DNA from: Candidatus Kapaibacterium sp.
Lineage (GTDB): Bacteria > Bacteroidota > Ignavibacteria > Kapaibacteriales > UBA2268
Length of the DNA stretch: 64,000 bases
Reading direction: 5' to 3'
Assembly: GCA_041675005.1 (NCBI GenBank)
Contig: JBAYUQ010000001.1
Span: 66,235-130,234 of the forward strand
The notes below the pieces were generated by a model. The model searched no databases. It was not told where the DNA came from and was given only the letters and a program-made list of their open reading frames with translations. The stretch's first letter is position 1. Every line of letters starts with the position of its first letter. This document shows, one piece after another, positions 1 through 58,520 of the stretch. Position numbers and translations under genes: made by a program.

Positions 1-111
1 AGTCGTCTTTCCTGACCTATAGTTGTCAAACTAATTCTAGCCGAACCCATTTGACTGCTACAAATATAGCAATAATTAATTAATTATTAACATATTTAGG
101 GAGTAAAAATT
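1..111 (+). promoter_or_regulatory. Conserved leader/promoter element, copy A (probably truncated by the window edge), upstream of cassette A.
   Basis: ~90% identical to 50286-50401 and 54076-54193 (motif agtcgtYtttcctgacctRtagttgtcaaactaattct...ccgaacMcatttgac...acaaatatagcaataatta...ttattaacatattt). Contains a TTGTCAAA/TTTGAC inverted repeat. TTTG and TAatTAtT boxes ~19 nt apart resemble a Bacteroidota-type -33/-7 promoter. Confidence 0.6.
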
Positions 112-7608: not shown

Positions 7609-7989
7609 CTATACTTTATCCTTTATCATTTCCAAAGTTTTACCATGTGCTTTCGGTCTTCCATTCGAATCTACATGGACTAAAACAATCTCATCTATCT
7701 TGATAATAGTAGTTTTAGTGTCTTTTACTCTTACTTCGCAGTTAATAGTTATAGAAGTTCTACCTACTTTTACGGTTTCACATCCGATTTCAATAATATC
7801 ATTATTATATGCTGGATTAACAAAATTAATTTCTGACATATACTTTGTAACAATATGATTGTCAGATAGTTGGCACATAGCAAATATAGCCGCTTCTTCG
7901 TCTATCCATTTCAATAATTGCCCACCAAATAGTGTATTCGCTGGATTTAAGTCCGGAGGACTAACTAATTTTCTTGTTTTGAATATCAT
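7609..7989 (-). CDS. Acyl-CoA thioesterase, hotdog fold, paralogue 2 (tandem duplicate).
   Basis: See 7219-7608; the two genes abut head to tail. Confidence 0.75.
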   Translation of the reverse strand: MIFKTRKLVSPPDLNPANTLFGGQLLKWIDEEAAIFAMCQLSDNHIVTKYMSEINFVNPAYNNDIIEIGCETVKVGRTSITINCEVRVKDTKTTIIKIDEIVLVHVDSNGRPKAHGKTLEMIKDKV

Positions 7990-10157: not shown

Positions 10158-10869
10158 GTAAGAAATTTATATTCGTATTATTATCGTATTCTTTTGCTTC
10201 TCTACCTTTTATGAAAACTCGTAAAGTTGGCTCACCAATAAGAGTTACATCATTATTTTCAATTTTCAAGATTGAACCTTCTCTTAGTCCAACAACTATA
10301 TTATCATTTTGAAAATGGTATTCGTTGATTCTAGTTTCCCTAGTTTCGCCTTTGTGAGTAGAATGTGGATCTGGATCTAAGTAATGAGGGTTAATATTGA
10401 AAGGAACAAACCCGAAAGCGTCAAATGATGGTGGATAGACTATAGGCATATCATTAGTAGTTTTGATACTCGGACCTGCTACATTCGAGCCAGCACTAGT
10501 ACCCATATACCTAAGCCCAGCTTTTACTTTTTGTTGGATTGGAGAAATTAATCCTTTCTCGTAAAGGGATTTGAGTAAAAGGAATGTATTTCCTCCACCT
10601 ATGAAAATCCCATCGCAATATTCAATAGCTTCTATTGGATTATCAAATTCTTCAATTCCTCTGATTTTCAAACCAGCATTTTCGAATCCTTTTTTTGCAA
10701 CTAAGCTATAATTCTCTAAGCTAACACCACCCGGTCTAGCATAAGAAATGAAAATTATATTTTTACACCCTGAGAAAAATTCAGCAATATCATCCTTGCA
10801 ATATTCCAAATATCCCATTGGATGTACAGTTGAGGAACTGCAAAGAAGTAAATTTAATTTATCAGTCAT
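10150..10869 (-). CDS. pepE: Dipeptidase E (S51 peptidase, alpha-aspartyl dipeptidase).
   Basis: 239 aa; S51 family layout with a GTSAGS serine-nucleophile region. Confidence 0.7.
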   Translation of the reverse strand: MTDKLNLLLCSSSTVHPMGYLEYCKDDIAEFFSGCKNIIFISYARPGGVSLENYSLVAKKGFENAGLKIRGIEEFDNPIEAIEYCDGIFIGGGNTFLLLKSLYEKGLISPIQQKVKAGLRYMGTSAGSNVAGPSIKTTNDMPIVYPPSFDAFGFVPFNINPHYLDPDPHSTHKGETRETRINEYHFQNDNIVVGLREGSILKIENNDVTLIGEPTLRVFIKGREAKEYDNNTNINFLLD

Positions 10870-11378: not shown

Positions 11379-14300
11379 GGCGTTTGCCGAATATTGTGTA
11401 TTTCATTGCTGAACCTACACCATGACCTCTCGATCTAGATAATGCATATTTCTGTCTAACAGCAAACTGGATAGTGTACATAGTAGGTACAACTAATAGT
11501 GTCAAGAATGTAGAGAACGTCAATCCAAAGATAATCGCCCAAGACATAGGAGCCCAGAATACTGTATTATCAGAACCGAAAGAAATATTCGGCGCAAAAT
11601 CAGAGAACAGAGTTGCAAAGTTTATGTTAAAGCCTAATGCTAATGGAACTAATCCAAGCATTGTAGAACCAGCTGTTAATATTACTGGTTGCAATCTAAC
11701 GACACCACCATCTATTATTGAACTAGTTGGCTTCATACCTTCTTTCAATCTAATATCAGTGAAGTCGATTAGTAATATACCGTTATTAACTACGATTCCA
11801 GCCAGTGCTATAATACCCACGCCCGACATCACTATTACGAAGTCCATACCAGTAATAGCATAACCTAATAATACCCCAATCACACTGAATATAATAGTAG
11901 AGAATATCATTAGTGGCTTTATAGTAGAATTGAACATAGTTACTAAGATGAAGAACACTAATAACATTGATATTAAAAATGCTTTCATCAGGAATTCACC
12001 GGTTTCTTTCTGTTGTTCTTGCTCACCAGTTAGTTTTATCTCATATCCAGCAGGCAAGTTAAACTCTTTTGCTGTTTTTGTGATTTCTTGATTTATTTGG
12101 TTCGCATTGTATCCACTAAGTACATTAGAGCTTAGTGTAACTGTACGTTCTACATCTTTTCTATTGATACCACCAAAAGTATTTTGGAATTTGATATCAG
12201 CAAAAGCAGAAATAGGAACTTGACGGAAATCACCAGTTTTTTCTCTGAAAGTCAATTTGATATTCATAAGTTGGTCTATGTTCTGTCTGTATTCTTCTCT
12301 CAATCGCAACTGAACAGGATAATCATCATCAGCCGTTCTGTATTTAGTTACTTCAGTACCATATAGAGCAGTTCTAATCGCCGAACTAATCTGAGAAGTA
12401 GATAAACCTTCTTTATTTGCTTTTTCTCTATTTATCTCTACTAATATCTCAGGTTTGTTTAACTCCAAGTTTGACTGTAGATTCTCGATACCTTGTATAT
12501 TCAATGAGTCAACTAAAGTATATTTGAATTTTTTGGAGAAATCTACAAGTTTATCAAAGTCAGCACCACTTATCTCGATATTTATTGGTTTACCCGTAGG
12601 AGGTCCACCTTGTTCTTTATCAACTTGAATATCAACTCCTGCCATTTCTCCAATTCCTTTCCTGATTTTCTCCATGTATTCCCAAGTATTTTCACCATTT
12701 CTTTTTCCGAATTCCACGAAGGAAACAGTTACTTTACCTTTATTTGGTTTTACACTTCGGTCAGGATTCATAGGGTCACCAGCACCAACTCCTACATTCG
12801 AAATTACAGATGTAACAATCGGATTATTTTCACCAACTATATCAATTACTTTGTTTTCGACAATAGTAGTGATACTATCAGTAATTTCTGCTCTTGTACC
12901 CAGAGGTAATTCTAGATAAACCATCACATTATTAGGATCAGGATTAGGGAAGAACTCAACTTTAGGAGTCGCAACTGCAAAAATAAAAATACTCAATATA
13001 AGCGCAAAAAATACACCTATTAGAACTAGTGCTGGGCGTTTACCTTTTAATATATACGTTAAAGTAGATTTATATGTCTTAATTAACCAAGGCACAAATG
13101 TAGCTTGGAATTTTCTAATAATAATTGGAGTTAGGATAAATTTGTTAAACCAGAATAATACGATGGCAATCATAATCAAATTACCAAGCGTAGATACTCC
13201 ACTTAACGATAATAATAATCCCAAACCAAAAATACTAAATGTTGTTATATAAAATCCCATAGTTGGTTTTTTTGTCACTCCTTGTTTCATCGAGTCCATA
13301 AACTGAACTGCAAATACTGGGTTGATTATAAAAGCAACTATAAGAGAAGCAGTCAAAAGTATAATCAATACTGCAGGCAAGAAGAACATAAATTCACCCA
13401 TTATCCCAGGCCAGAAAAGTAGTGGGAAGAAAGGGGCTAAAGTTGTTAAAGTACCCGCTAGTACAGCTGAGAAAACCTCTGCAGATGCTGTATTAGCAGC
13501 TTCCTTTATTGGCATTCCTTCAGTAAAGTGGAGTCTATATGTATTCTCGACTACTACAATCGCATTATCGACGAGTATCCCTAATCCAAGTAGGAAGGAG
13601 AAAGTCACGATAATATTGAATGTAAAGTCTAATGGTGGAAGAACTATAAATGAAATAGCCGCCGATAATGGCACAGCTAACCCAACATAAACTGCATTAC
13701 TAACACCCATAAAGAACATAAGTACAACAGTTACTAGTATGAAACCGATAATAACTGAGTTAATTAGATCTGTAATAGCGACTCTTGTATTATCAGATAA
13801 ATCACCAGTTATTGTGACATTCAAATCATCAGGAAATACATTTTCTTTCATATCCGCTATAACAGCGTTTATCTCATCGGAAGCTTCGATTAGATTTTCT
13901 CCACTTCTTTTGATTACACTTAATGCTATTACAGGTTTTTTGTTCATTCTAGCAAAACTACTCCTTTCCTCATTAGTAAACTCAATAGTAGCTATATCAC
14001 GTAAATATATTTTATCGCTCTTGCTACTTGTTACTAATATGTTCCCAATCTCAGATACATCGTGGAATTCACCTATTACTCGGATTGCTCTTTCAAGTCT
14101 TCCGACGTCCAAATTACCACCACCGATATTGACATTTTCATCTTTGATAGCACTGTAAACATCGTTAAAAGATACATTAGCTGCTGTCATTCTATATAAA
14201 TCTAGATTGACTTGAACTTCTTTTTCTAATGCACCAATCATATCAGCACGAGTTATTTGAGTAAGACCTTCTATTCTGTCTTGCAAATCATCAGCATAAT

Positions 14301-27138: not shown

Positions 27139-27232
27139 GTCTTTATACCGTGTTATTTATTAATTATTTATCTTTTATAGAGTTTAGACAGATGATTCAA
27201 GTAAATCCTTCGGTGAGAGTCTCTTTTAATTG

Positions 27233-30405: not shown

Positions 30406-30661
30406 ACTTATTCTAATACATTGTAATTATAAATTATATAGTTTAGACAGATGATTCTGGTAAATCCTTCGGTGCGGGATGTTTTAATTATAAAGGATAG
30501 GGTAAGTAAAAGAGTGGGGGAGTTGAATACTTCTCTAATTCACTGAGTTGGGTTATGTTAGTTAGATTCAGTAAATATAGTTTTGAACTATCATAAGATT
30601 TAGAATTACATGTGAACCCAAGCTTTGCTGGTAATTTTTGTTTTAATTTGTATCATATAAT

Positions 30662-32646: not shown

Positions 32647-33285
32647 TTATTCCTTCAAAACCATATCTATACACATAACAGCTGCTAGTATAAGAAGACG
32701 AACGGGGTCATTTTGGGGTACAGTTGGTTCTATCTCTAGCATATAGTTGTCGGCACTAGTGAACAACTCTCGACCTATCCCAGCCCATTTCTTAGCAACA
32801 TGAGCTAACTTGACTTCACCTTGACTGAAATCAAAATTCCAGCTTGTCCATTTCCCTTTGAGAGAGCAAACCACATTATCCGCAGCATCAAGCACATCGA
32901 ACTTCCCACCAATAGAGAAGAACTTCTGTTTGAAGCGGCCAAATAAGACATCATTCTCATCGAATACTTCCACGTTAGACAAGAAAATGGAAATACCTCG
33001 CTTTACGGTTAATACCTTTCTTCCATCAGCAGTTTTTATCTCTATATCGAATGGTGTTGCACGCTTATAGTCGGTAAATCTAAATATCTTGGTGAATATA
33101 CCGAGCTTTTCTTCTCTGCAAGTCATAATCATCTGCTGAGTATTCGGGTCGAATATATCGTAGTTATTCGCTGCTTTAAATATTCCTCTGTGTTCTTTGA
33201 CGAAGAATAAGTTTTTATTGAGTATTGGATTCATTGGGGTTCCTGTGTTAATTATTATCACATTTAATGGTAAAATAAAGCTCAA
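32647..33285 (-). CDS. Scramblase/LURP-one-related (tubby C-terminal-like) protein. The true start is probably the internal Met (MNPILNK...).
   Basis: Beta-barrel tubby-like pattern ...FDI...ADG..VLTVKRGISIF...; the annotated start may be over-extended. Confidence 0.5.
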   Translation of the reverse strand: MSFILPLNVIIINTGTPMNPILNKNLFFVKEHRGIFKAANNYDIFDPNTQQMIMTCREEKLGIFTKIFRFTDYKRATPFDIEIKTADGRKVLTVKRGISIFLSNVEVFDENDVLFGRFKQKFFSIGGKFDVLDAADNVVCSLKGKWTSWNFDFSQGEVKLAHVAKKWAGIGRELFTSADNYMLEIEPTVPQNDPVRLLILAAVMCIDMVLKE

Positions 33286-33319
33286 TTTACATAAAAATTG
33301 AGCTTTAATTGAGATATTT

Positions 33320-34306
33320 CTAATTCGGCAATGTAAATTGCTTCAGCCAATTCCAATTAACTTGTGCACCAATCATCCAATGATTTTTCCCGTTTGGATA
33401 TTGATGCGTCAGATCTTTTATATATGCGAAATTGAAATTATTTGTTGTATTGCCATCATTTGGTACAAATGTAGCATAGACTACTGTATTAGTATCTCCA
33501 GAAATAGTATAATTTGGATTCAAATCAAAGCTTTTTATATGAGTCTGAACTATCTTATATGGTTGGTATTCAGCTGATGATAATACTTTATCAAATTCTG
33601 ATAATGGAATAAATGGACCAGTATTCGCAGGACCATAATCTCCATTACCAATTTGAAATAATATTGGTAATTTTCTTACAGGATTACTCATTGTATCTAA
33701 ATCGAATAATGCACCACTTTCAACAATTGCAGCAATCTTATCACCCATAAGTATAGATAGTTTGACACACATTTGTCCTCCATTTGAGAATCCCACAAAA
33801 TAAATCCGTTTAGAATCTATAGTATATTCTTTACCAAGTTCATCAATAATCTGTCTTAGAAATTTGATATCATCGGGAGGAGTAACATTTGAACAGTATT
33901 CAAAAGAGCAAAATGGTATGCTATTCCATTTTGTAATCTTTTTTTGTCCATCTTCATCGAGAATACAATAATTCATGGATGAAGGAAATACGGAAATAAA
34001 ATTTTCTTTTTCACCCAACTCCTTCCAACCTGAGGTATTATAGAACCTTTCACCATCTCCACCAGTTCCATGGAGCATAAATACTACTGGAACATCCGAT
34101 TTACCGTCATAGCTTTCTGGTATGCTTACTATGTATTCTCGTTCAACGTCATCAACAATTGTGGTAAATTCATTTTTCCCGTTTTTGATAACTGGATCAA
34201 CAATTTCATCTTTTTTATTACAACCTATAAATACAAATGAAATTGTTAAAAATAGTAATAATTTTTTCATACAAATACCTTTATTTATAAAAAGTGAATA
34301 AGTCAA
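33320..34306 (-). CDS. Esterase/PHB-depolymerase-family lipoprotein (alpha/beta hydrolase). It probably starts at the internal ATG (MKKLLLFLTISFVFIGC).
   Basis: The track start is a TTG; 12 codons downstream there is an ATG with a classic lipoprotein signal. HGTGGDGERF oxyanion region; GFSNGG nucleophile elbow. Confidence 0.75.
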   Translation of the reverse strand: MTYSLFINKGICMKKLLLFLTISFVFIGCNKKDEIVDPVIKNGKNEFTTIVDDVEREYIVSIPESYDGKSDVPVVFMLHGTGGDGERFYNTSGWKELGEKENFISVFPSSMNYCILDEDGQKKITKWNSIPFCSFEYCSNVTPPDDIKFLRQIIDELGKEYTIDSKRIYFVGFSNGGQMCVKLSILMGDKIAAIVESGALFDLDTMSNPVRKLPILFQIGNGDYGPANTGPFIPLSEFDKVLSSAEYQPYKIVQTHIKSFDLNPNYTISGDTNTVVYATFVPNDGNTTNNFNFAYIKDLTHQYPNGKNHWMIGAQVNWNWLKQFTLPN

Positions 34307-34790: not shown

Positions 34791-34987
34791 TTGTAAGGAT
34801 GATAAAGATAGATGAATGTAGGATATTATTCAAAATTACATTCTTTGTATTTGGTTTAGTTTTAGTAATTTCTTTTCCTCCTCAAAATATCACTTATTTG
34901 TAGCTCATTTGATTCACTTTTGTTGCTCAATTTACATAATATTTGAGCTTTATTTCAAATTATTTTGAGCTACAAATTAAAAATAAA

Positions 34988-35992: not shown

Positions 35993-36195
35993 TCTGTATT
36001 ATTTTTAAGCCTATAACTGAAATTTTCAGTTTATTTTGTTGGTAATAATTTATTTAAAGGAATTCAAATAATTTGATTTGATGAAATTTATAAATATAAT
36101 TTCTTATTAATTAAGCTTTTTAATCTGTATCTCATTTGATCCACTTTTGTAATACAAATTACACAAAAAATGAGTTTTATTTCAAATAAATTTTG

Positions 36196-36232
36196 GCTTC
36201 AAAAAAAAAGACTACCTTGTGAGTAGTCTTCC
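36196..36232 (-). terminator. Rho-independent terminator downstream of clpP.
   Basis: Minus strand: GGAAGACTACtcacaagGTAGTCTTTTTTTTT. Confidence 0.75.
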
Positions 36233-42897: not shown

Positions 42898-43035
42898 AAG
42901 GTCAGAAAAAACTTCGTGGGTAATTCCTGACCTGTATTTATCATCTAAAATTGCACACCTCAAATGATATTTACAAATTTAATGAATTATCCTCAAACAA
43001 TTAAATAAATATTAATTTTTATAGGAATTTCAGAA
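42898..43035 (+). promoter_or_regulatory. Degenerate copy of the cassette leader element upstream of cassette B.
   Basis: ggtcagaaaaaac...cctgacctgta retains the GTCAG/CTGAC inverted repeat and the ttatagg box; the central part has diverged. Confidence 0.4.
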
Positions 43036-48096: not shown

Positions 48097-49248
48097 GTGG
48101 AATATATGAAAAAACAATACATAATCTTATTTGTCAGTCTAGTTATGCTTTTTGCAATAAAAAGCGAAAGCATTGCACAAAATGACATAGCAAGTTCTCG
48201 TCAAAATGCGATAACTCGAGCAATAGAGAAAGCTAGTCCTGCCATTGTAGGTATAAACGTAACAGAAGTAAGGCAGGTACTATATCGTAATCCTTATGGA
48301 GGTACTTTATTCGAGAGATTTTTTGGTAAGCAAAGAGATAGAGTACGTGAGTATGAAGTAAAAGGACTCGGTTCGGGGTTTATCATCTCTCCTGACGGAT
48401 ATATCCTAACTAATAACCACGTAGCTGGCAATGCAAAGAAAGTAGTTATCACAACCACTGACGGCAAGAGATACGATGCCGAAATTATAGGCACAGACCC
48501 AGCTACCGATATTGCTTTGCTAAAGATAAAATCTGATGATAAACTACCATATATACAATTCGCAAATTCCGATGATTTGATAATAGGTGAATGGGCTATT
48601 GCACTAGGTAACCCATTTGGACTATTCGATATAAATGCAAAACCGACTGTAACAGTTGGAGTTATATCTAATAAAGGCGTGAACTTCCTAGAGGAGCAAG
48701 ACAAACGGTTAACTGTTTACAAAGATATGATTCAGACCGACGCAGCAATAAGCTCGGGTAACTCTGGTGGACCTTTGGTGAATGCCGAAGGGAAGGCAAT
48801 AGGTATGAATACAATGATTTTTTCAACAGCTCAATCTCAATCGGGTTCAGGTAGTATAGGAATTGGGTTTTCCATTCCTATCAACAGAGTTAGCCAAATA
48901 GTTGAGTTGATAAAATCAAAGAAGGTTATTAACCGCAATGTTTTCTTAGGACTAGAAATACAAGAAATTGACGACAAGGTGATATCTTATCTAAACTTAC
49001 CAGACATAAGAGGAGTAGTTATATACTCTACACAAAACAACGGTCCAGCGAATAGAGCAGGGTTAGAACCCGGTGATGTGATACTTACAATCAATGGTCG
49101 GAAAGTGATGAGAGAAGATGATTACTATATTGAAATATATGATAGCATGGTCGGAGATACTATGGAATTTCAAATCCTGCGTGGAGATAAGGAAAAAACT
49201 ATTAAATTGCAGTTAGAAGAACCCCAACAAAACAGAAGATATAGATAG
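48097..49248 (+). CDS. HtrA/DegP-family trypsin-like serine protease with a PDZ domain.
   Basis: Catalytic motifs TNNHV, D.ALLK and GNSGGPL; C-terminal PDZ. Confidence 0.85.
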
Positions 49249-50009
49249 TGGAAGAAGGCAAATCAGTTCTATCAGCACAAGGACTAATCAAAATCTATGG
49301 CAAACGAACAGTTGTCAAAGGGATAGACATAGAAGTAAAGCAAGGTGAAATAGTCGGTCTGCTTGGTCCCAACGGAGCTGGTAAGACTACAGCCTTCTAT
49401 ATGATAGTTGGTATGGTTCGACCGAATAAGGGTATAGTACGAATAGATGATAAAAAGATTACCCGTAAGGCGATGTACCAACGCGCTAGAATGGGTATTA
49501 GTTATCTGCCACAAGAGCCATCTATATTCCGTAAGCTATCAGTTGAAGATAATATAAAAGCTGTACTCCAGCTACAAAAAGGACTCAGCCGAAAGCAAGT
49601 AAAGGAAAAGTTAGAACAGCTCCTTGAAGATTTTAAAATTGCTCGTGTGCGTAAGAGTAAGGGGTATATGCTTTCGGGAGGGGAGAGACGCCGTTGCGAG
49701 ATAGCCCGAACGCTAGCATCAGACCCCAAATTCATTCTCTTAGATGAGCCATTCGCAGGAATTGACCCTATTTCAGTAGAAGATATTATGGATATTATCT
49801 TTGCTCTTAAAAACAAGGGAATTGGAATACTAATCACCGATCACAACGTCCACGAAACTCTGTCAATCACTGATAGAGCTTACATTCTAATAGACGGCAG
49901 TCTATTCACGAGCGGAAAATCCGAAGAAGTAGCTGCTAATCCTGATGTCCTCAAGTTTTACCTCGGCGAGAATTTCCGCTTGGAAAGATACGTACCTAAA
50001 GACCTATAA
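49248..50009 (+). CDS. lptB: LPS export ABC transporter ATP-binding protein.
   Basis: Walker [10 protein letters not shown]; signature LSGGERRR; Walker B ILLDEP; GTG start overlapping the htrA stop. Confidence 0.85.
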
Positions 50010-50130
50010 GCAATAAGTAAATTCGCCACTTTTGCCTACTTTGTTACTAATTCAACTCCCCCTTAACTCTAGTTATAACATTTATATACAATTGTTGATA
50101 AAAGCTGCTTGTTTTTTAAAATAAATTTGG

Positions 50131-50145
50131 ATTTTATTTTATTTT
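50131..50145. repeat. (ATTTT)3 pentanucleotide tract in the cassette C upstream region.
   Basis: ggATTTTATTTTATTTTaaac; the homologous position in the duplicate copy (53896-53935) carries 8 units. Confidence 0.8.
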
Positions 50146-50278
50146 AAACTTGATACAAATGAAATTAATCAATATTTGTAAACTGTTCTATAAAATGAAT
50201 TACAAATGAATCCAACAACAAAGCACCACTCATCTGGAGGCAAAAAGTGGTTTTCAAATTCTAGTAGATATAAAAAAA

Positions 50279-50401
50279 GTCAGAAAAAACGAAAGTCGTT
50301 TTTCCTGACCTGTAGTTGTCAAACTAATTCTGACCGAACACATTTGACAGTCACAAATATAGCAATAATTATTTATTATTAACATATTTATAGGTAAGCA
50401 A
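50279..50401 (+). promoter_or_regulatory. Conserved leader/promoter element, copy C.
   Basis: 13-bp imperfect inverted repeat GTCAGAAAAAACG-aaagt-CGTTTTTCCTGAC (50279-50309); TTGTCAAA-N19-TTTGACAG inverted repeat; putative -33 TTTG and -7 TAatTAtT boxes; ends at the ATG. Confidence 0.6.
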
Positions 50402-51001
50402 ATGAAAACTCTAAAATTTATCTTATTAAGCGTAGTTGTTTTTATTATAACTATTAATTTCTCTAATGCCGCTCCTTGTCCTTTAGGACAAAGTACTGTT
50501 TATAAGACTTTCCTAATAACTTACAACGGTGTATCTTGTTGGGTTGAAGCACAAATCTGTGCCGATTGTGATATTACTGGAAGTAATGTATATTTAGCAG
50601 TGAACGACATAAAAAAACCAAGTTACCCAGGAATTCCAACAGCCATAATTTATCAACAAGTTGCTGCTCAGTTATCTGAGAATGTATTTGAAATCTGTCA
50701 AATTGAACCTTGTAGTTCTCCTACAACTTCAAAAGTTTACGTAAAAACACCAGTTTGTGTGAAAAAATCTGCTGTTATGGAATTTGGAAACCTTTATATT
50801 TATATTATACCTTGTGATTGGAGTGCATACTATGAAGTTTATACACAAACTTGTTTTGATCCAATTTTGGATGACTATATAACAACACCAGTTGGTGTAG
50901 AAAAGTTTGGAACACCAAGTTGTACTGCGTTAGCCGAACCAGGCGATCCAGCTATAGATAACGTTACAGATTGCTACCAACAAGACTGTTTTCAAGATTA
51001 A
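50402..51001 (+). CDS. Small Cys-rich secreted protein (no CTD); cassette C, gene 1.
   Basis: Signal peptide (..SNA/AP); 14 Cys; C-x2-E-x3-C-x2-C and P.IP...I..Q...Q.S modules shared with the 54194-54838 protein. Confidence 0.7.
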   Translation: MKTLKFILLSVVVFIITINFSNAAPCPLGQSTVYKTFLITYNGVSCWVEAQICADCDITGSNVYLAVNDIKKPSYPGIPTAIIYQQVAAQLSENVFEICQIEPCSSPTTSKVYVKTPVCVKKSAVMEFGNLYIYIIPCDWSAYYEVYTQTCFDPILDDYITTPVGVEKFGTPSCTALAEPGDPAIDNVTDCYQQDCFQD

Positions 51002-51014
51002 TAATAATAGAAAT

Positions 51015-53444
51015 ATGAAATACATTTTAATTCTTATAGCTTTAAGTACTAACCTTATAGCACAGCAATTCAATATAACCCCTTTGAGTATTAATTTCAA
51101 TGGGGTTATATCTATTGATGATAATATAGTTATTTATGGTGATAACGGTTATTATTATTTCTCTCAAGATGGAGCAAATAATTGGGAACAAAGACTGTTG
51201 CTTGAGCAAAAGAACATTCGCAAAATACAAGAGAATAATGGCGTACTTTATGGTATTTTGGAAGATGGTTATCTGATCAAATCAACTAACAAAGGGTTAG
51301 ATTGGAGGATAACGAAATTTGAAAATGATACTAGTATGAAATTTGTTACTATGGATGTAAATGATAAAAATGTATATGTCCGAGGCATAGACGAAATTTT
51401 AAAATTTGACTTAGATTTTAACTTAGTTAAAAGATATAAAAATTCAATTCTAAACTATTATGGGCCATCCCTAATCTTCACTTATGATGTGAATTTAATA
51501 AACAAATTCATACAGTATTATAATGGTTATTTAGTTGTTCCTCTACAAAATGAAAATTATCTGATTTTAAACGATGAATTAGAATATATTAAGGAAGTCT
51601 ATCTCATTGATTCTTTAGATGCGATTGATGACCCAGATGCTAGATTGATAGATATGATTGTATATGGTGATGAATTATTAGTCACTCTTGATGGTCCCAT
51701 TAAAAGTGGATTAGACTATTTTATAATAAATGAAACAAATCTACTCGGGAAGTGGGATGAAATAGTTCTTAGTAAAGATAGAAAAAGACTTTTATTTAGT
51801 AGCTTTAAAAATGAACTTTATACTTTAGAATTTAGTGTTGAAACTAATGAAGAAGATGTTGGAAGTACTTGGAGATTTAAGGCAAGTGTTAGTAAATATA
51901 GATTACGAAAATATAATAAAGTTACTAATGATTTTGATTCAATCGGGGAATGGTTTGATTCATTTTTTGTTCTTGGTTTAACTAGAGTTACAGAAAATGG
52001 ATACTCGCCTATTTATACAAATAAACCAAATATAACATCGGATTCAACTGTATTAGTAGTTGGTGATAAAAAAACTATTCTTACCTCACAATATGGTAAA
52101 AACTGGAATTTATTCTCTTATATTGAAGGAACTCCTAGTCAGATATTTAATGATAACGTCTATTTGAATAAAGGTATTTACGCTTCTACGACGAAAGACG
52201 GTGGACTATCAAGCACAAATAGGCGAATAGTAGATACTACTGATTGTCATTATTGCAAATTCACTAATTTTCATCAATCATTTATCAGCCCCAATGGAAA
52301 TGGTTTTCTTTATGGAAGTCCAATTTATGACACTTGGGCTAATATTGGATTTACCAAAGATAGTGGCAATACTTTTGAATTTTCATACAATACTGATTTC
52401 TATTTTAGAACTTTCAAATTTGCAACAAACTTTGCTGAATTAGGAGACGAGTATTGTACAATCCATAATCGAAAAACAACCGCTTCTAACCCTTTGCTTA
52501 GCAGTATGTGGGTTACGTATGCATATTACTTCAATAAAGATGATTTCAGTGATTATAGGATGGAAGTATTAGATACTAACGAATATAGATACTATTACTT
52601 ATTTACTCAAAGTGCGGATTATTATCAACAAGTTAGATATAACTTCGAACAACTTCACCCTAAAGATCAGTTTTTAGAGATAAGGACTACAACTGATGCT
52701 GGTAAGAGTTGGACTTCTTTTCATAAGATTCAGAATTATTCGGAGAATTTTAAGTTTTATGAGCATAACAAAGATAGTTTATTTATTACTAGCTATGGAT
52801 ACACAAGTTATGGGGATTTTGATTATACTAATAGAGTGTATCTTTATGACAGAACGAGAGATGTAGTCGATACCTTATTTAGTGAAGACGAGGTAAATAG
52901 AAAAAATCTGCAACTTGTTTTCTTTGATAATCATTTTTATATAATGGGTGATAGCATACTCAAAGTAGGTAATAAAACTCTAACAGAATGGTCTGATGTA
53001 CAGAATTGGCCAACTCAGAACCCATCATTTGAAGAAGTCTTATCGAATGGAAATGTAATTCTAACTAAATACAAAGATGATACTAGAAAGTCAAAGGATT
53101 TCTATTTAGATAATTATTATAAGATAGTAGCTGATAAAACTACAGATGTCGAAATTACAACTGTTGCGCTTAGAACTTATGAAGCATATCCAAATCCAAC
53201 TACTGGGAAAGTATTTGCTGAGATATATTGGCAATCTGGTTTTGATATATTTGAATCTATCAAAGGTGTTTATGATATATCAGGTAATCTGGTTTCAACA
53301 AGGGAGCAAATCGCATTGACAAAATCCCATAACTATTCTGGATTATTAGAATGGGATAGTAGCTCACATCCGTCCGGGATTTATTTCATTGTAATTAAAC
53401 ATGGGAACAATAAACAATCGATTCCATTTGTGGTGGTTGAATAA
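51015..53444 (+). CDS. Large Asp-box/BNR beta-propeller protein with a T9SS CTD; cassette C, gene 2.
   Basis: SQDGANNWE, STNKGLDWR, TTDAGKSWT, TKDSGNTFE; C-terminal AYPNPTTGKV...GIYFIVIKHGNNKQSIPFVVVE. Confidence 0.8.
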   Translation: MKYILILIALSTNLIAQQFNITPLSINFNGVISIDDNIVIYGDNGYYYFSQDGANNWEQRLLLEQKNIRKIQENNGVLYGILEDGYLIKSTNKGLDWRITKFENDTSMKFVTMDVNDKNVYVRGIDEILKFDLDFNLVKRYKNSILNYYGPSLIFTYDVNLINKFIQYYNGYLVVPLQNENYLILNDELEYIKEVYLIDSLDAIDDPDARLIDMIVYGDELLVTLDGPIKSGLDYFIINETNLLGKWDEIVLSKDRKRLLFSSFKNELYTLEFSVETNEEDVGSTWRFKASVSKYRLRKYNKVTNDFDSIGEWFDSFFVLGLTRVTENGYSPIYTNKPNITSDSTVLVVGDKKTILTSQYGKNWNLFSYIEGTPSQIFNDNVYLNKGIYASTTKDGGLSSTNRRIVDTTDCHYCKFTNFHQSFISPNGNGFLYGSPIYDTWANIGFTKDSGNTFEFSYNTDFYFRTFKFATNFAELGDEYCTIHNRKTTASNPLLSSMWVTYAYYFNKDDFSDYRMEVLDTNEYRYYYLFTQSADYYQQVRYNFEQLHPKDQFLEIRTTTDAGKSWTSFHKIQNYSENFKFYEHNKDSLFITSYGYTSYGDFDYTNRVYLYDRTRDVVDTLFSEDEVNRKNLQLVFFDNHFYIMGDSILKVGNKTLTEWSDVQNWPTQNPSFEEVLSNGNVILTKYKDDTRKSKDFYLDNYYKIVADKTTDVEITTVALRTYEAYPNPTTGKVFAEIYWQSGFDIFESIKGVYDISGNLVSTREQIALTKSHNYSGLLEWDSSSHPSGIYFIVIKHGNNKQSIPFVVVE

Positions 53445-53455
53445 AAATAAATCTA

Positions 53456-53481
53456 AAGGAGCCAACTCGGCTCCTTTTTTC
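53456..53481 (+). terminator. Rho-independent terminator of cassette C.
   Basis: AAAGGAGCCaactCGGCTCCTTTTTT. Confidence 0.75.
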
Positions 53482-53608
53482 TATTTATTCTCCTCTTACA
53501 ATAACTAACTTAATAACAAGTTTATACACCAATCATTATTTGTTTGCAATTGCTTCTTTTTGATAGTAATTTTGCAACTACCTAAAAAGATAATATTTGG
53601 AGATTAAT

Positions 53609-53773
53609 ATGCCATTCGTTCCAGCATCGGACAAAGATAGAGCATATATACTAATAGACGGCAGTCTATTCACTAGCGGAAAATCCGAAGAAGTGGCTGC
53701 TAATCCTGATGTCCTCAAGTTTTACCTCGGTGAGAATTTCCGCTTAGAAAGATACGTCCCGAAAGACCTATAA
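53609..53773 (+). pseudogene. Chimeric 54-codon ORF marking the tandem-duplication junction: gcvPA codons 1-11 fused in frame to the last ~43 codons of lptB.
   Basis: Translation MPFVPASDKDR|[43 protein letters not shown]. The first part matches 57183..., the second matches 49879-50009. The junction lies at the shared GATAGAG microhomology. Confidence 0.85.
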
Positions 53774-53895
53774 TCAACAAGTGAACTTGTTCCCTTGTTC
53801 CAATATTGTCACCCTCCCTATACATTTCTAACTCTAGTTATAACACTGCGATAAAAATGTTAATAAAAAACGCTTGTTTTTAATAAATAATTTGG

Positions 53896-53935
53896 ATTTT
53901 ATTTTATTTTATTTTATTTTATTTTATTTTATTTT
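53896..53935. repeat. (ATTTT)8 pentanucleotide microsatellite in the cassette D upstream region.
   Basis: Eight tandem ATTTT units, versus three at the homologous position 50131-50145. Confidence 0.85.
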
Positions 53936-54068
53936 AAATTTGATACAAATGAAATTAATCAATATTTGTAAACTGTTCTATAAAATGAATTACAAATGAA
54001 TCCATCAAAAAAGCACCACTTAACTGGAGACAAAAAGTGGTTTTCAAATTCTAGTAGATATAAAAAAA

Positions 54069-54193
54069 GTCAGAAAAAACGAAAGTCGTTTTTCCTGACC
54101 TGTAGTTGTCAAACTAATTCTTGCCGAACACATTTGACAGTTACAAATATAGCAATAATTATTTATTATTAACATATTTTGTGGAGTTAAAAA
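54069..54193 (+). promoter_or_regulatory. Conserved leader/promoter element, copy D.
   Basis: Near-identical to 50279-50401, including the GTCAGAAAAAACG/CGTTTTTCCTGAC hairpin (54069-54099). Confidence 0.6.
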
Positions 54194-54838
54194 ATGAAAG
54201 CAACAATTAACAATTTGATTTTTTTAAGTATAACAATATTCGTTGCCAAAAGCATTAATATTGAAGCCAAACCTATTTGTACCAAACCATGGGTAAATAT
54301 CGTAGATACAGTTACAGTTGACGGATGTGATTATGAAATAGATTTATGTGTATACTGTGCATTCGCTTATCCAGGGAAAGTTAAAATTAATTATTATAGA
54401 AATATTAGTGGATGTACACCTACCATACCACCTAATCAAATAACAAATCAAATTATATCTCAAATCTCAACGTATGCCTATTTTTGGTTTGATTATTGTC
54501 AATTCAATTTACCCCCGTGTTCAGGTTCACTGCGTAAAAAAATAGAATGGGATATTTATATATGTTGGAAGGCTAAATTAGTAATTAAAGGTGCGACCCC
54601 ACATGATGATGTCTACCTCCATTTACCTTGTGAAGATAATGATACCTTCTGTCGTGTTACTTATTCTTATTGTGTAGATGAGTTTGCCGTTGTTCATCAT
54701 AATGTTTCTGGATACTTAGGCTATAATTTTGATCCTTCATGTACACTGGAAGGTTCAGCAGTATTCCCTTTACCACCATCCGCTATGGTTGGAGATGAGA
54801 CAGCATGTTACGTTTTACACACGGTATGTAACCCATAG
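54194..54838 (+). CDS. Small Cys-rich secreted protein (no CTD); cassette D, gene 1.
   Basis: Signal peptide; 20 Cys; CVYCAFAYPGKVKINYYRNISGC matches the CxxC-x3-I-x-Y-x-YR-N module of the 112 and 43036 proteins. Confidence 0.7.
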   Translation: MKATINNLIFLSITIFVAKSINIEAKPICTKPWVNIVDTVTVDGCDYEIDLCVYCAFAYPGKVKINYYRNISGCTPTIPPNQITNQIISQISTYAYFWFDYCQFNLPPCSGSLRKKIEWDIYICWKAKLVIKGATPHDDVYLHLPCEDNDTFCRVTYSYCVDEFAVVHHNVSGYLGYNFDPSCTLEGSAVFPLPPSAMVGDETACYVLHTVCNP

Positions 54839-54844
54839 AATAAT

Positions 54845-57001
54845 ATGTATAAATTTCTTATAGTATTAATTTTCATAATCCCTTTTGCATCAAATGCCAA
54901 TATTTGGACTAAGGCGGATGGGCCATTTGGTTATGCTATGTCGTACAATATTTTCAATTATGATAATAATCTATATTCATCTAGTCAATCTAATGGTTTA
55001 TCAGTATATAAATTAGATAATAAAGAATGGACACGATTAGATACTGGTTTCTTTTCTGGCAAAGGATTAATACATTATTTTGATCAAAAAGAAAACGTAG
55101 TACTTACTTCTACTGATTCAGGTATTTATTTGTCCTATAATTATGGAAAGGACTGGAAGCATTTTGATACATTAGGTGGTTTTGATAGATTTCATTTTGT
55201 CACCATTGTTGACGAAACAATATTTTTACAATCCAACCAATTCAGAAGTTTGTATAAACTTGAAAAGGGTTCTGAGACTTTAGAAAAAATATATGCTAAT
55301 GAACAAAAAACAGACTCTATATTTGCTGATGTTATTATAACGAATGATAACTATATTTTTGCTGCTGACCCTGTTAAACATTATGATGTTCAAGATAAAG
55401 AAGGGACATTATATATATCAAGTGACAAAGGAGAAAGTTGGAAACTATCTGAAACAATGAATAAAAAAATCAAGAATTTATTATTTCATGAGGATATATT
55501 ATTAGCCTTTACTGAAGAAGATGGATTATTTAGGTCAACCGACTACGGAAAAAGTTGGACTACTGATACAAATTTAGTAATTAAATCAAATAAAGTAGCT
55601 TCCTATAAGAATTTGATTTTTTCATGTGAGAACGAAATACAAATTTCTACTGATAACGGAATCAGTTGGAAAGTTCAAAACAATGGTTTAAAGTCAATTG
55701 CTTGTAGGGATATTCGTATAGTAAATGATACATTATATTACTTTACAAATCAAAGAATAATATATTATTTCGATTATGAAAATAAATTGTGGATAAGAAA
55801 TACTCCAATTACTGATGACGTGTCTCAAGAGTTTATTTCAGCAGAAAATGATACTCTATTCACAACAGGATCATATACGATAAACTATTCGATTGATAAT
55901 GGATTAACTTGGAGTATATATAGTGATAGTTTGTATTACAATTTTACAAACATTGGAAGAATATATAAGCAAGATAGTGTAATATTTGCCTTAAATCGCC
56001 TTAATTCTTTACTCTTAATCTCGATTGATTATGGACAATCTTGGAGATTTGAAACTTTAGGAAAATCTGAAAATCAACCTTGGATAGGCGATGTATTGCT
56101 AATGGACAATCGAATACTCCTCTTTACAAAGTTTGGTAATTTTTATTCTGAAGATGTTGGTTTAAATTGGGTTGAGTATGAAGGGGAAGTACTAGATAAG
56201 GATGTGAAAGTAAGAAGATATTATAGACTAAGTAATTCCAAAATAATTGTTTATAGTGAGGTAGGGCTTTATCTAACCTATAATAATGGATTAACTTGGG
56301 TCTATGAAAAAGCTGACGAAGAAGTAATGACCCACTACTATACTTACAGAGAAGATAATAATTTATATACAATGGACTTTCTTGAATTTGATCAAATATA
56401 TAAATCTACTAACTTAGGACGTACTTGGGTTGATTTAGAAATAAATATAGAATCTGGTTTAAGGTGGGCTAGTATAATACCATATAATGGTAATTTAATA
56501 TTGTTAACTAGTACTGGAGTTTTTGTTTCTGATAATGAAGGAAAAGAATGGACAAAATATGAGATTAATTTATTTACTCCTGACCAAAAGGAACTTTATT
56601 TCTATAGTGGGTTAATTGTTGATGAGTGTTTAGTATTAACCTCTGCTTATGGTAATTGGCGAGCGAAACTCTCCGATCTTGGAGTTGAAGTAAAGTCTTC
56701 CGTCGAATCAGAAATAGAGCGAAACTATCTATATACTTATCCACCATACCCTAACCCAGCAAAATCAGAGGTAAAGGTTCTGTTTTATTGGGATATAAAC
56801 TTACCAATGACGACAGACGACATTAGCATATATGATATAACTGGTAAGAAAATAGATGCGATTGATAAGATTAGCTTAGTTAAGCAAGAGAGTCATTATG
56901 GCAACCTAATCTGGGATTGCTCTACAGCTCAGCCGGGTATATACCTAATCAACATAAAACATGGCACAGAAGAGAAAACCGTGAAAGTGGTGGTGGAGTA
57001 G
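54845..57001 (+). CDS. Asp-box/BNR beta-propeller protein with a T9SS CTD; cassette D, gene 2.
   Basis: Ten Asp-box-like repeats (SYNYGKDWK, SSDKGESWK, STDYGKSWT, STDNGISWK, SIDNGLTWS, SIDYGQSWR, SEDVGLNWV, TYNNGLTWV, STNLGRTWV, SDNEGKEWT); C-terminal YPPYPNPAKSEV...GIYLINIKHGTEEKTVKVVVE. Confidence 0.8.
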   Translation: MYKFLIVLIFIIPFASNANIWTKADGPFGYAMSYNIFNYDNNLYSSSQSNGLSVYKLDNKEWTRLDTGFFSGKGLIHYFDQKENVVLTSTDSGIYLSYNYGKDWKHFDTLGGFDRFHFVTIVDETIFLQSNQFRSLYKLEKGSETLEKIYANEQKTDSIFADVIITNDNYIFAADPVKHYDVQDKEGTLYISSDKGESWKLSETMNKKIKNLLFHEDILLAFTEEDGLFRSTDYGKSWTTDTNLVIKSNKVASYKNLIFSCENEIQISTDNGISWKVQNNGLKSIACRDIRIVNDTLYYFTNQRIIYYFDYENKLWIRNTPITDDVSQEFISAENDTLFTTGSYTINYSIDNGLTWSIYSDSLYYNFTNIGRIYKQDSVIFALNRLNSLLLISIDYGQSWRFETLGKSENQPWIGDVLLMDNRILLFTKFGNFYSEDVGLNWVEYEGEVLDKDVKVRRYYRLSNSKIIVYSEVGLYLTYNNGLTWVYEKADEEVMTHYYTYREDNNLYTMDFLEFDQIYKSTNLGRTWVDLEINIESGLRWASIIPYNGNLILLTSTGVFVSDNEGKEWTKYEINLFTPDQKELYFYSGLIVDECLVLTSAYGNWRAKLSDLGVEVKSSVESEIERNYLYTYPPYPNPAKSEVKVLFYWDINLPMTTDDISIYDITGKKIDAIDKISLVKQESHYGNLIWDCSTAQPGIYLINIKHGTEEKTVKVVVE

Positions 57002-57027
57002 GAATTCCCAATCACAAAGTAAAAACA

Positions 57028-57054
57028 AAAGGAGCCAACTTGGCTCCTTTTTTC
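57028..57054 (+). terminator. Rho-independent terminator of cassette D.
   Basis: AAAAGGAGCCaactTGGCTCCTTTTTT; one-base difference from the cassette C terminator. Confidence 0.75.
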
Positions 57055-57182
57055 TATTTATACCCATCTTACAATAACTAACTTAATAACAAGTTTATAC
57101 ACCAATCATTATTTGTTTGCAATTACATCTTTTTGATAGTAATTTTGCAACTACCTAAAAAGATAATATTTGGAGATTAAAA

Positions 57183-58520
57183 ATGCCTTTCGTTCCAGCA
57201 TCGGACAAAGATAGAGAATATATGCTAAGTAAAATTGGCGTACAAAATTTTGAACAATTAATAGAAAACATCCCATCTGAAGTACGTTACAGAGGTGGTA
57301 TGGATTTCCCAGAGCAGCTTTCGGAGTACGAAGTAACTCGTCTTATGCTCTCTTATTCTAATATGAATAACTCTGCTTCTTCGCATATCTGCTTTATGGG
57401 CGGTGGTGCTTATGAAAGATATATCCCTTCTATCGTAGGTGATACTATCAACAGAGCTGAGTTTCGTACAGCATATACGCCTTACCAAGCAGAAGTATCG
57501 CAAGGTACTTTGCAGGCTATGTATGAGTTCCAAACTATGATTTGTGAGCTATATGGTATGGATGTTGCCAATGCTTCTATGTATGATGGTGGTACTGCAC
57601 TTGCAGAGGCAGTTCTTATGTCAACAGCAATCAACCGTAAAACAGAATTTGTTTATGTTGGTACTATCAACCCTAACTACAAAGATGTAGTAAAAACAAT
57701 CACACAAGGTAGAAAGTTCACTTATCTAGATGCAGTTGCTGCAGATGGAACTACTGATTTCGAAAAGTTGAAATCGTTACTAAGTGATAAAACTTCTGCT
57801 GTAGTAGTTCAACAACCTAATTTCTTGGGTTCAATTGAAGATGTACGTGAAATAGAGAAATTAGCACATGCTAATGGAAGTTTATTTATAGTTGCTGCCG
57901 ATCCATTCTCAGTTGGTGTATTAGAAGCACCGGGTAACTACAATGCAGATATAGTTATCGCTGAAGGGCAACCTTTAGGTATCCCACTTAGTTATGGTGG
58001 TCCTTACCTAGGTATATTCGCTTGTAAACAAGAATTTGTACGTAAGATTCCTGGACGTTTAGCAGGTGTTACTTCTGATTTAGATGGTAAACGTGGTTTT
58101 GTATTAACTTTACAAACTCGTGAACAGCAAATCAAACGTGAGAAAGCTACATCTAATATCTGTACTAACCAAGGTCTTTTCATGTTAGCGGCCACTGTTT
58201 ATTTGGAAACAATGGGAAAAGCTGGTGTGAAGGAAGTTGCTGAGCAATCATTCCATAAAGCACATTACCTAGCTGAGAGAATTACGGAATTAGATGGTTA
58301 CGAATTATTCAACGATAAGCCATTCGTATTCGAATTTGCTGTTAATGTACCCGGAGATATAGAAGTTCTATTAGATCAAGCAAATGAAGCAGGTTTCTTA
58401 GCTGGTATAAATGTTTCTAAACATGTAAATAGTCCTAACACACTACTTATAACAGTTACTGAAACTAGAACTAAAAAAGAAATGGATGATTTCGTTGATT
58501 TCTTGAAGCAATTCAAATAA
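57183..58520 (+). CDS. gcvPA: Glycine dehydrogenase (decarboxylating) subunit 1 (split P-protein, N-terminal half).
   Basis: 445 aa; ...TAYTPYQAEVSQGTLQAMYEFQTMI... conserved glycine cleavage P-protein region; no gcvPB adjacent. Confidence 0.85.
   Translation: MPFVPASDKDREYMLSKIGVQNFEQLIENIPSEVRYRGGMDFPEQLSEYEVTRLMLSYSNMNNSASSHICFMGGGAYERYIPSIVGDTINRAEFRTAYTPYQAEVSQGTLQAMYEFQTMICELYGMDVANASMYDGGTALAEAVLMSTAINRKTEFVYVGTINPNYKDVVKTITQGRKFTYLDAVAADGTTDFEKLKSLLSDKTSAVVVQQPNFLGSIEDVREIEKLAHANGSLFIVAADPFSVGVLEAPGNYNADIVIAEGQPLGIPLSYGGPYLGIFACKQEFVRKIPGRLAGVTSDLDGKRGFVLTLQTREQQIKREKATSNICTNQGLFMLAATVYLETMGKAGVKEVAEQSFHKAHYLAERITELDGYELFNDKPFVFEFAVNVPGDIEVLLDQANEAGFLAGINVSKHVNSPNTLLITVTETRTKKEMDDFVDFLKQFK

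Follow-up and report, generated by a model that had tools for sequence, protein, structure and literature searches.

The stretch analysed here, called the window throughout, is a 64,000-nucleotide (nt) segment of the genome of Candidatus Kapaibacterium sp. (GenBank assembly GCA_041675005.1, contig JBAYUQ010000001.1, positions 66,235 to 130,234), and the feature in question is a chimeric open reading frame (ORF) that lies between lptB and gcvPA and joins a piece of each. The window derives from a 580-kb contig (k141_1852216; ENA ERZ27247358) assembled by MEGAHIT, with a final k of 141, from a short-read metagenome. The proteins of the locus are deposited in GenBank as MFA7325121-27, from a Candidatus Kapaibacterium sp. 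metagenome-assembled genome with locus tags around WC121_00525. The gene order at the locus is priA (minus strand), htrA, lptB, a first gene cassette (C), the chimeric ORF, a second gene cassette (D), gcvPA, a divIC-like gene and a ROK gene. The features that concern us are the following, in window coordinates.

49248–50009, plus strand: lptB, resident and intact (lipopolysaccharide (LPS) export ABC ATPase; Pfam ABC_tran; GenBank MFA7325121.1, LPS export ABC transporter ATP-binding protein).
49872–50389, plus strand: upstream repeat block, copy 1, comprising the tail of lptB with its fast-evolving 3′ flank, then a promoter-like module (TAAATTTG), (ATTTT)3 and a leader of ~260 nt.
50402–53444, plus strand: cassette C, coding for a 199-amino acid (aa) Cys-rich secreted protein (50402–51001) and an 809-aa protein with a type IX secretion system (T9SS) type A C-terminal sorting domain (51015–53444).
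53449–53608, plus strand: trailer, copy 1, made of the terminator hairpin of the large cassette gene (53455–53477; terminator scan) followed by the conserved gcvPA upstream region; 94% identical to 57022–57182.
53609–53773, plus strand: chimeric ORF, 54 codons (54 aa), made of gcvPA codons 1–11 and lptB codons 211–253; GenBank hypothetical protein WC121_00525 (MFA7325124.1).
53636–53642, plus strand: breakpoint microhomology GATAGAG, 7 nt exact, also present in lptB (49872–49878) and in gcvPA (57210–57216).
53636–54179, plus strand: upstream repeat block, copy 2, comprising the fragment of lptB (cp2 allele) with a 3′ flank that has diverged, then a promoter-like module, (ATTTT)8 and a leader.
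54194–57001, plus strand: cassette D, coding for a 214-aa Cys-rich secreted protein (54194–54838) and a 718-aa BNR/F510_1955-like protein with a T9SS C-terminal domain (54845–57001).
57022–57182, plus strand: trailer, copy 2, with a terminator (57027–57051) and the gcvPA promoter region, before the intact gcvPA.
57183–58520, plus strand: gcvPA, intact (glycine dehydrogenase subunit 1; Pfam GDC-P, E 9e-129), parent of codons 1–11 of the chimera.

The first 11 residues of the chimeric ORF (MPFVPASDKDR) are those of the gcvPA N-terminus at 57183, and the last 43 residues show no amino acid difference from the lptB C-terminus; the counterpart of this part in the resident gene is its last 43 codons (49878–50009, the cp1 allele). 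The gcvPA promoter region and its ribosome-binding site (RBS) are retained upstream of the ORF, and an alternative TTG start is found at 53597. The join is a head-to-tail novel junction that connects gcvPA codon 11 to lptB codon 210/211. Since GATAGAG stands in the same codon phase in both parents (GAT AGA, Asp-Arg), fusion in frame was automatic. Across 53636–53654 the lptB allele of the fragment itself matches gcvPA at 17 of 19 positions, the three sequences at the breakpoint being GATAGAGCATATATACTAA in the chimera, GATAGAGAATATATGCTAA in gcvPA and GATAGAGCTTACATTCTAA in the resident lptB. The translation and the alignments with both parents thus agree with the preliminary description of this DNA, which had claimed that 53609–53773 is the gcvPA N-terminus fused in frame to the end of lptB, and that GATAGAG is followed by similar bases in both parents. 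We conclude that the ORF is a real feature and a recombination scar with no gene role of its own. Nothing in the analysis points to a function of the predicted 54-aa peptide; the duplicated gcvPA upstream region, with a −7-like TAATTTTG of the Bacteroidota type and a GGAG RBS, would be expected to express it. This second gcvPA promoter would also read towards cassette D, and the terminator scan found no plus-strand terminator between the two.

At the join, exact identity between the parents does not exceed 7 bases, too few for any de Bruijn graph with k≥21 to have made it from them; exact repeats between the two units reach 91 nt at most, which is below the final k of 141. An identical 54-aa protein and an identical junction were found on JGI contig Ga0378408_0456867 (hereafter L083; IMG 3300037067, which a landfill-virome preprint gives as leachate well LW3 of a Southern Ontario landfill), and this contig confirms the join itself. 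Logan unitigs from SRR6484325 contain cassette C (L168) and cassette D (L171). Each of them starts exactly 30 nt (k−1, with k=31) inside the last shared leader stretch, as would be expected if C and D share the end of their leader in these reads.

Self-blastn of the region reproduced two colinear blocks around the junction, namely 49872–50389 against 53636–54179 (85% with gaps, E 3e-152) and 53449–53649 against 57022–57223 (94%, E 1.5e-85), with matching flanks that total 518 nt and 206 nt (53449–53654 against 57022–57228) only. In the same self-blastn no nucleotide similarity was detected between the interiors, 50390–53448 and 54180–57021. Since these ~3-kb interiors are unrelated in DNA, cassettes C and D are not copies of each other, and the whole-length copies that a tandem duplication leaves are absent. 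Identity was also uneven along the matching flanks. The values were 96.5% for the leader (259 nt), 94.4% for the trailer and 93.2% for the lptB tail, against 66% for ig1, the 120 nt past the lptB stop. The difference between ig1 and the leader is highly significant (Fisher P 4e-15), and the longest exact runs shared by the two units are 91 nt, in the leader, and 58 nt, in the trailer. Judged from these values, the block-wise divergence tracks normal functional constraint, and not the decay of a copy from a single date. The region had been described before as a tandem duplication of ~49879–53643 that gave ~53644–57216. A head-to-tail join at short homology and colinear flanks are indeed there, but the segment as a whole was not copied, given that the interiors are unrelated and the divergence is heterogeneous.

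At the protein level, the small products of C and D (199 and 214 aa) share 27% identity over 73 aa; they belong to a distant Cys-rich family and have signal-peptide-like N-termini. The large products can be aligned in the T9SS C-terminal domain only (34% identity over 99 aa), for which the Por_Secre_tail/TIGR04183 scores were 31.0/29.4 bits in C and 40.4/35.5 bits in D, against curated cut-offs of 27/23. No relative of cassette D at ≥90% identity was present in a collection of 15 billion proteins, and the 90% clusters of the locus proteins were all singletons, with the exception of gcvPA.

Relatives of the locus were collected by a gcvPA scan of 185,579 species genomes and by a metagenome scan with the chimera as query. 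They are given here by L numbers, with what stands at the lptB-gcvPA site.

L002 (HGW-Ignavibacteriae-4, ~90% nt identity in core genes): lptB, a promoter module with (ATTTT)7, a Cys-rich small protein, a 521-aa T9SS protein, the trailer and gcvPA.
L087 and L132 (metagenome contigs): lptB, one reverse-oriented gene for a 550-aa T9SS-type protein, and gcvPA.
L004 (contig that starts inside the cassette): a C-like large gene directly before the trailer and gcvPA.
L003 (genome contig): a large protein, 35% identical to that of D (distantly D-like).
L005 (genome contig): three small genes after the same promoter module, with an (ATTAA)n repeat.
L169 (Logan SRR28814934, 93% nt identity): an L002-type cassette.

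Four of the relatives keep lptB and gcvPA linked, among them L002, L087 and L132, and each of the four holds a single cassette between the two; neither the chimera nor two cassettes were found in any of the relatives examined. At least five cassette types occur across the relatives. In the more distant L006–L009, lptB does not lie within 10 kb of gcvPA. The resident lptB is 90% identical in nt sequence to that of L002, and the intact gcvPA is 86–90% identical to those of its relatives. The C-like large gene of L004 is 88% identical in nt sequence to that of the window, a divergence equal to that of its gcvPA; as cassette C is thus as diverged from L004 as core genes are, it is not fast-evolving. 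On the right, the variable DNA of all relatives stops precisely before TACAATAACTAACTTAATAAC, where the conserved gcvPA upstream region starts. The stretch from TACAATAAC to the ATG is conserved in L002–L006, L087, L132 and L169, and in the first trailer of the window the gcvPA upstream region reads TTACAATAACTAACTTAATAAC, followed by the −7-like TAATTTTG and the RBS GGAG. The site is bordered on the left by the conserved promoter/leader module and on the right by the conserved terminator and the gcvPA promoter. Because the relatives each carry one cassette, and a differing one, the lptB-gcvPA spacer is, as judged from this set of genomes, a hypervariable single-occupancy site for the predicted expression of T9SS-secreted proteins in the clade, to which the window strain is the exception. 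In L087 and L132 we also observed that the reverse 550-aa gene is flanked by a 24–29-nt direct repeat of CCTTACAATAACTAACTTAATAA (10190–10218 and 12350–12380), a possible att-like site or else a possible scar of some previous event.

The origin of the lptB fragment was analyzed from its differences with the resident gene. It differs from the resident tail at 9 of 132 positions (93.2% identity; 92% over the 150-nt block), and all nine differences are synonymous, for which P is 1.6e-6 under neutral decay (22.7% synonymous sites). When the three differences nearest the join were left out, the remaining six were likewise all synonymous (P 1.4e-4). Eight of the nine states of the fragment, the TAT ATA codons beside the join among them, recur in a functional lptB gene, that of L002, L086, L087 or L132, and the distance between fragment and resident is ~60% of that between the window and L002. 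Heteroduplex mismatch repair was considered as the source of TAT ATA by the join, and was rejected: these states are native to the lptB genes of L086, L087 and L132, and so come from the donor allele. By these substitutions, then, the fragment is a foreign (non-resident) lptB allele from the working gene of another lineage. Since its states recur in functional lptB genes of other lineages, its ~7% divergence predates the join, and identity with the resident gene therefore says nothing on the age of the event. An earlier dating, by which ~90% identity of the fragment meant that the event was not very recent, has to be withdrawn for this reason. The lack of any non-synonymous change or frame damage after the join would instead argue for a recent rather than an old event. 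The case carries a general caution, in that identity between a fragment and its resident 'parent' cannot date a rearrangement if the fragment may come from another strain; it was the synonymous/non-synonymous pattern that exposed the foreign origin.

These results make it probable that the window strain stacks two different alleles, C and D, of a T9SS-cargo site head to tail. An illegitimate join of gcvPA codon 11 to a non-resident lptB allele at a 7-nt microhomology is seen directly in the sequence; homologous recombination in the conserved flanks would be needed in addition. By a first route, a C-allele strain would take up DNA of a D-allele strain and insert it by homology-facilitated illegitimate recombination (HFIR), with a homologous anchor at one end (in gcvPA, close to it or in the trailer) and a microhomology joint at the other. 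By a second route, a D-allele strain would first acquire the join, whether through a true tandem duplication or through the excision of a circle, and the join-plus-D unit would then enter the C-allele chromosome by a crossover in the ~200-nt trailer. On the junction side, the 3′ half of the trailer and the gcvPA part are identical to L004, a C-like haplotype, up to the breakpoint, and the sequence to the right of the breakpoint is non-resident from the first codon. Both observations are in favour of the stacking of two haplotypes. As in HFIR, the inserted DNA is foreign (a non-resident fragment allele, and a cassette D that has no counterpart in the relatives) and the joint lies at a microhomology within the 3–10-bp range, here 7 bp exact. 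Homology that could serve as an anchor is present in the trailer, in gcvPA and downstream.

Several observations weigh against such a stacking. The D-only haplotype, lptB(cp2)-D-gcvPA, was not found among the genomes and contigs searched, so that the donor is a postulated one. The search for it and for the chimera consisted of exact-protein look-ups (large and small proteins of D, large protein of C, chimera), a cluster look-up and the metagenome scan; among the matches listed, the scan with the chimera gave ordinary lptB tails (residues 7–54) only, with no further chimera among them, and did not return L083, which makes it a weak negative. The homologous crossover point was not located in gcvPA or downstream. 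Sliding-window identity along trailer-gcvPA-divIC-ROK against L002–L005, L087 and L169 revealed no change of affinity, and a dip at 57500–57800 is common to all genome pairs, not specific to the window, and hence uninformative on the crossover. Only a few trailer polymorphisms link the junction side with the C haplotype, and several lineages have them in common. The ENA, NCBI, JGI and Logan data sets may not be independent samples. Finally, the structure of L083 (1–1409) is not the one expected. This contig of 1409 nt has zero private differences from the window and is a mosaic of window segments. It runs from the 3′ end of the large gene of D through the 5′ half of the D trailer, a junction-type trailer 3′ half, the join and the first 90 nt of the fragment, and continues with a copy-1-type lptB tail, ig1 and the leader into the small gene of D. 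It switches between segments three times, where 58, 35 and 36 nt, respectively, are shared. An unequal crossover between the two trailers would produce exactly the first of these switches, as in a D-junction-D amplification or an excised circle. An order from the large gene of D through the trailer and the junction to the small gene of D, of copy-1 type after 90 nt, is not predicted by a simple model of stacking; the later switches fit no simple event. L083 may be a structural variant that really exists, or the assembler may have taken a path through short repeats.

A possible, though doubtful, alternative is that microhomology recombination between sister chromosomes first produced an in-place tandem duplication of one unit, and that one cassette and part of the flanks were then replaced through homologous recombination with DNA of the other allele. 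A head-to-tail topology with a 7-nt microhomology is classical for duplication join points, and the order in L083, with the junction and a leader between the large and the small gene of D, is expected from a D-D duplication. Replacement through the conserved flanks is plausible as well, because relatives hold different cassettes between the same flanks. The position of the allelic differences, however, weighs against it. The nearest ones lie less than 30 nt from the breakpoint on both sides (CCA/CCT on the gcvPA side, 27 nt away, where the trailer 3′ half matches L004; GCA TAT ATA on the lptB side, directly at the join), so that a replacement would require a crossover in <30 nt of homology. 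Two events would moreover be needed where one suffices, and L083, free of private single-nucleotide differences and with switches at 35–58-nt shared stretches, may be an assembly path. Two-haplotype stacking and duplication followed by replacement both include the microhomology join of the preliminary description.

A more far-reaching extension of the stacking of two haplotypes seems improbable to us. By it, the spacer would be a dedicated, integrase-free stacking site for T9SS-cargo cassettes, with an array that expands, contracts and exchanges units in the landfill population; the D-junction-D order of L083 would be a real amplification product or circle, and the fusion a portable 'linker' by which whole units move between strains by homologous recombination alone. 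If this were true, each cassette would carry a shared promoter, a pentanucleotide repeat, an antisense small RNA leader and a shared terminator.

We consider it very unlikely that the duplication is ancient, that the units diverged in place and that the chimeric ORF was kept by purifying selection as a functional 54-aa peptide. Nine synonymous and no non-synonymous differences in the fragment, and an intact frame, promoter and RBS, are what such selection would leave. Yet the synonymous divergence of the tail is only ~0.2–0.3 per site, while the cassettes have no nucleotide similarity and proteins at most 27% identical, and cassette C, at 88% to that of L004 (the same as core genes), is not fast-evolving. 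The chimera is absent from the four relatives with a linked lptB-gcvPA locus, and the variant states of the fragment are common to lptB genes of other lineages.

Equally little speaks for the site-specific capture of cassettes, in an integron-like manner or at an att site, by a recombinase acting upstream of gcvPA, with the scar as a by-product. Such a capture would account for the precise right boundary before TACAATAACTAACTTAATAAC in all relatives and for the 24–29-nt direct repeat of conserved boundary sequence that flanks the inserted gene of L087/L132. But no integrase or recombinase gene appears in the Pfam lists of the genes within 10 kb on either side of the locus, and the breakpoint in the window falls within the coding sequences of both genes, at 7 nt of microhomology and not at the conserved 22-mer. 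This 22-mer (TTACAATAACTAACTTAATAAC) is 120 nt upstream of the C/D boundary and occurs twice in the window, both times in the trailers, and the repeat blocks consist of hundreds of nt of ordinary flanking sequence. Least credible of all is an artefact in which the assembler stitched the haplotypes lptB-C-gcvPA and lptB-D-gcvPA in tandem, since, for all that the contig is a short-read MEGAHIT metagenome assembly with 0.2–0.5-kb repeats around both cassettes and that the L083 mosaic reveals how assemblers struggle at this locus, the gcvPA-lptB join is novel sequence whose 7 shared bases are too few for any graph with k≥21, the exact repeats between the copies stay below k=141, and the identical join stands in the JGI assembly of another data set.

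The leader that C and D share was found at other places in the strain. A copy of the leader block is present upstream of cassette A, and a diverged form upstream of cassette B. Cassette A (526-aa and 453-aa BNR/T9SS proteins; window 112–3050), with the same leader, lies directly downstream of porU and porV (L084 2081–7297), two T9SS machinery genes that stand upstream of the window start on the contig of the window (porU, Peptidase_C25, 1338 aa). On the minus strand of the leader, just upstream of the first gene of each cassette, we observed a candidate small RNA of ~80 nt (50268–50361 and 54058–54151, both minus strand), with further copies at window 1–75 (minus strand; cut by the window start, and full at L084 7860–7992) and at 42900–42990 (minus strand). 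Its elements are a −7-like box, TA(T/A)ATTTG, which is conserved, an intrinsic terminator of 16 bp with a run of U, and a hairpin that shows four compensatory pairs in the cassette-B copy; folding of the leader gave z = −6.4 for the minus strand and −1.5 for the plus strand. The minus strand of the leader thus looks like a putative divergent or antisense small RNA of ~80 nt. If made, it would be complementary to the cassette mRNA in its long 5′ leader. A whole-window Rfam scan at gathering thresholds gave no match, an E-value scan of 53400–54250 gave only a chance-level MicX, and a strict leader-hairpin pattern found no copy outside the strain's own contigs among 168 loci. Two ORFs in the leader were tried as genes and rejected: a 58-aa ORF on the plus strand (50206–50382 and 53996–54172) and a 43-aa ORF on the minus strand, in both of which the few differences between copies are mostly non-synonymous; the second also has the terminator hairpin inside it.

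The promoter module holds a pentanucleotide repeat directly after a TAnnTTTG-type box: (ATTTT)3 before C, with eight units before D, six before A and seven in L002 (window 50131–50145 and 53896–53935; L084 about 7720–7750; L002 7640–7680). At the same position of the module L005 has (ATTAA)n (57–105), and D and A have another TAnnTTTG box after the repeat. By its position and variable length the repeat looks like a candidate contingency (phase-variation) repeat. In L087 (3150–3352) the RBS and ATG of a gene for a 759-aa BNR protein come immediately after the same promoter and the initial 100 nt of the leader, and the leaders of the window keep an RBS remnant, GGAGG, followed by GTG and a 5-codon ORF at about 50236–50265. 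From this direct fusion and this remnant, the half of the leader with the hairpin and the candidate small RNA looks like a later insertion that separated the genes from the promoter.

Other repeated sequences were also seen. The last ~300 nt of the large gene of D, which encode the T9SS C-terminal domain (56696–57001), are 86–88% identical in DNA to L002 2689–2990 and L003 1245–1543, where cassette genes end; these genes are otherwise unrelated, and one stands at another locus (a priA-side cassette of L002). The region coding for the sorting domain appears to be a shared module, and a possible substrate for recombination. Between porV and the leader of cassette A (L084 7380–7560) there are at least two copies of a hairpin-forming element, GTAGAGACGTAT...ATACGTCTC, possibly similar to repetitive extragenic palindromic elements. 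Two intergenic repeats are unrelated to the locus: a family of 87 nt in three copies with 63–77% identity (33251–33337, 34896–34982 and 36123–36209), and a 51-nt pair with 86% identity (27165–27215 and 30424–30474).

The event belongs to known classes of illegitimate recombination; it is mechanistically ordinary and by itself opens no new question. What it offers is a junction that is legible to the single base, in a bacterium not in culture, and that would show an accessory locus gaining a second allele instead of swapping it, a single microhomology join mimicking a tandem duplication and yet stacking two haplotypes. Direct repeats of ~0.5 kb and ~0.2 kb now flank the units and would permit loss or amplification of a cassette by RecA-type recombination; loss of C plus the join, or of the join plus D, would restore either single-allele state. 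The hypervariable T9SS-cargo site with its conserved leader may merit a separate study.

Capsule and O-antigen loci are hypervariable between conserved flanking genes, and are exchanged by homologous recombination in the flanks. The lptB-gcvPA site resembles them in its unrelated content between the same flanks across strains, and in flanks that are far better conserved. Unlike those loci, its units are of 2–3.5 kb and one to three genes with T9SS cargo, and two alleles are stacked and not replaced. Integron arrays are similar in that small unrelated cassettes, all in one orientation, occupy a fixed place in the chromosome behind a promoter-type module that they share. They differ in that here there is no integrase and no att­C-type site, each cassette has its own promoter and leader, and the cassettes meet where fragments of two housekeeping genes are fused.

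HFIR, as summarized in PMC6382021 (citing de Vries & Wackernagel 2002; Prudhomme et al. 2002; Meier & Wackernagel 2003), has been described in Acinetobacter, S. pneumoniae and P. stutzeri, with microhomology joints of 3–10 bp and a homologous anchor. By that account it adds foreign DNA beside a homology, with one end at a 3–10-bp microhomology and an insertion of several kb, as the allelic DNA would have been added here. In the uncultured Kapaibacterium, by contrast with HFIR as described there, the anchor crossover and the uptake of DNA are presumed steps, and what counts as 'foreign' DNA is an allele of that very locus, which makes the product resemble a tandem duplication. In the amplification of the cat region of Acinetobacter baylyi, described by Reams & Neidle and summarized in PMC9997567, duplications join at 0–5 bp of identity. 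As far as that summary describes them, they differ from our case in two respects: here the units are not mutual copies, with unrelated 3-kb interiors and a non-resident lptB fragment, and the event is fixed in a natural population and was not selected in the laboratory. In both systems there is a head-to-tail novel junction at very short identity (7 nt here, 0–5 nt there), and in both the resulting direct repeats allow further amplification or loss.

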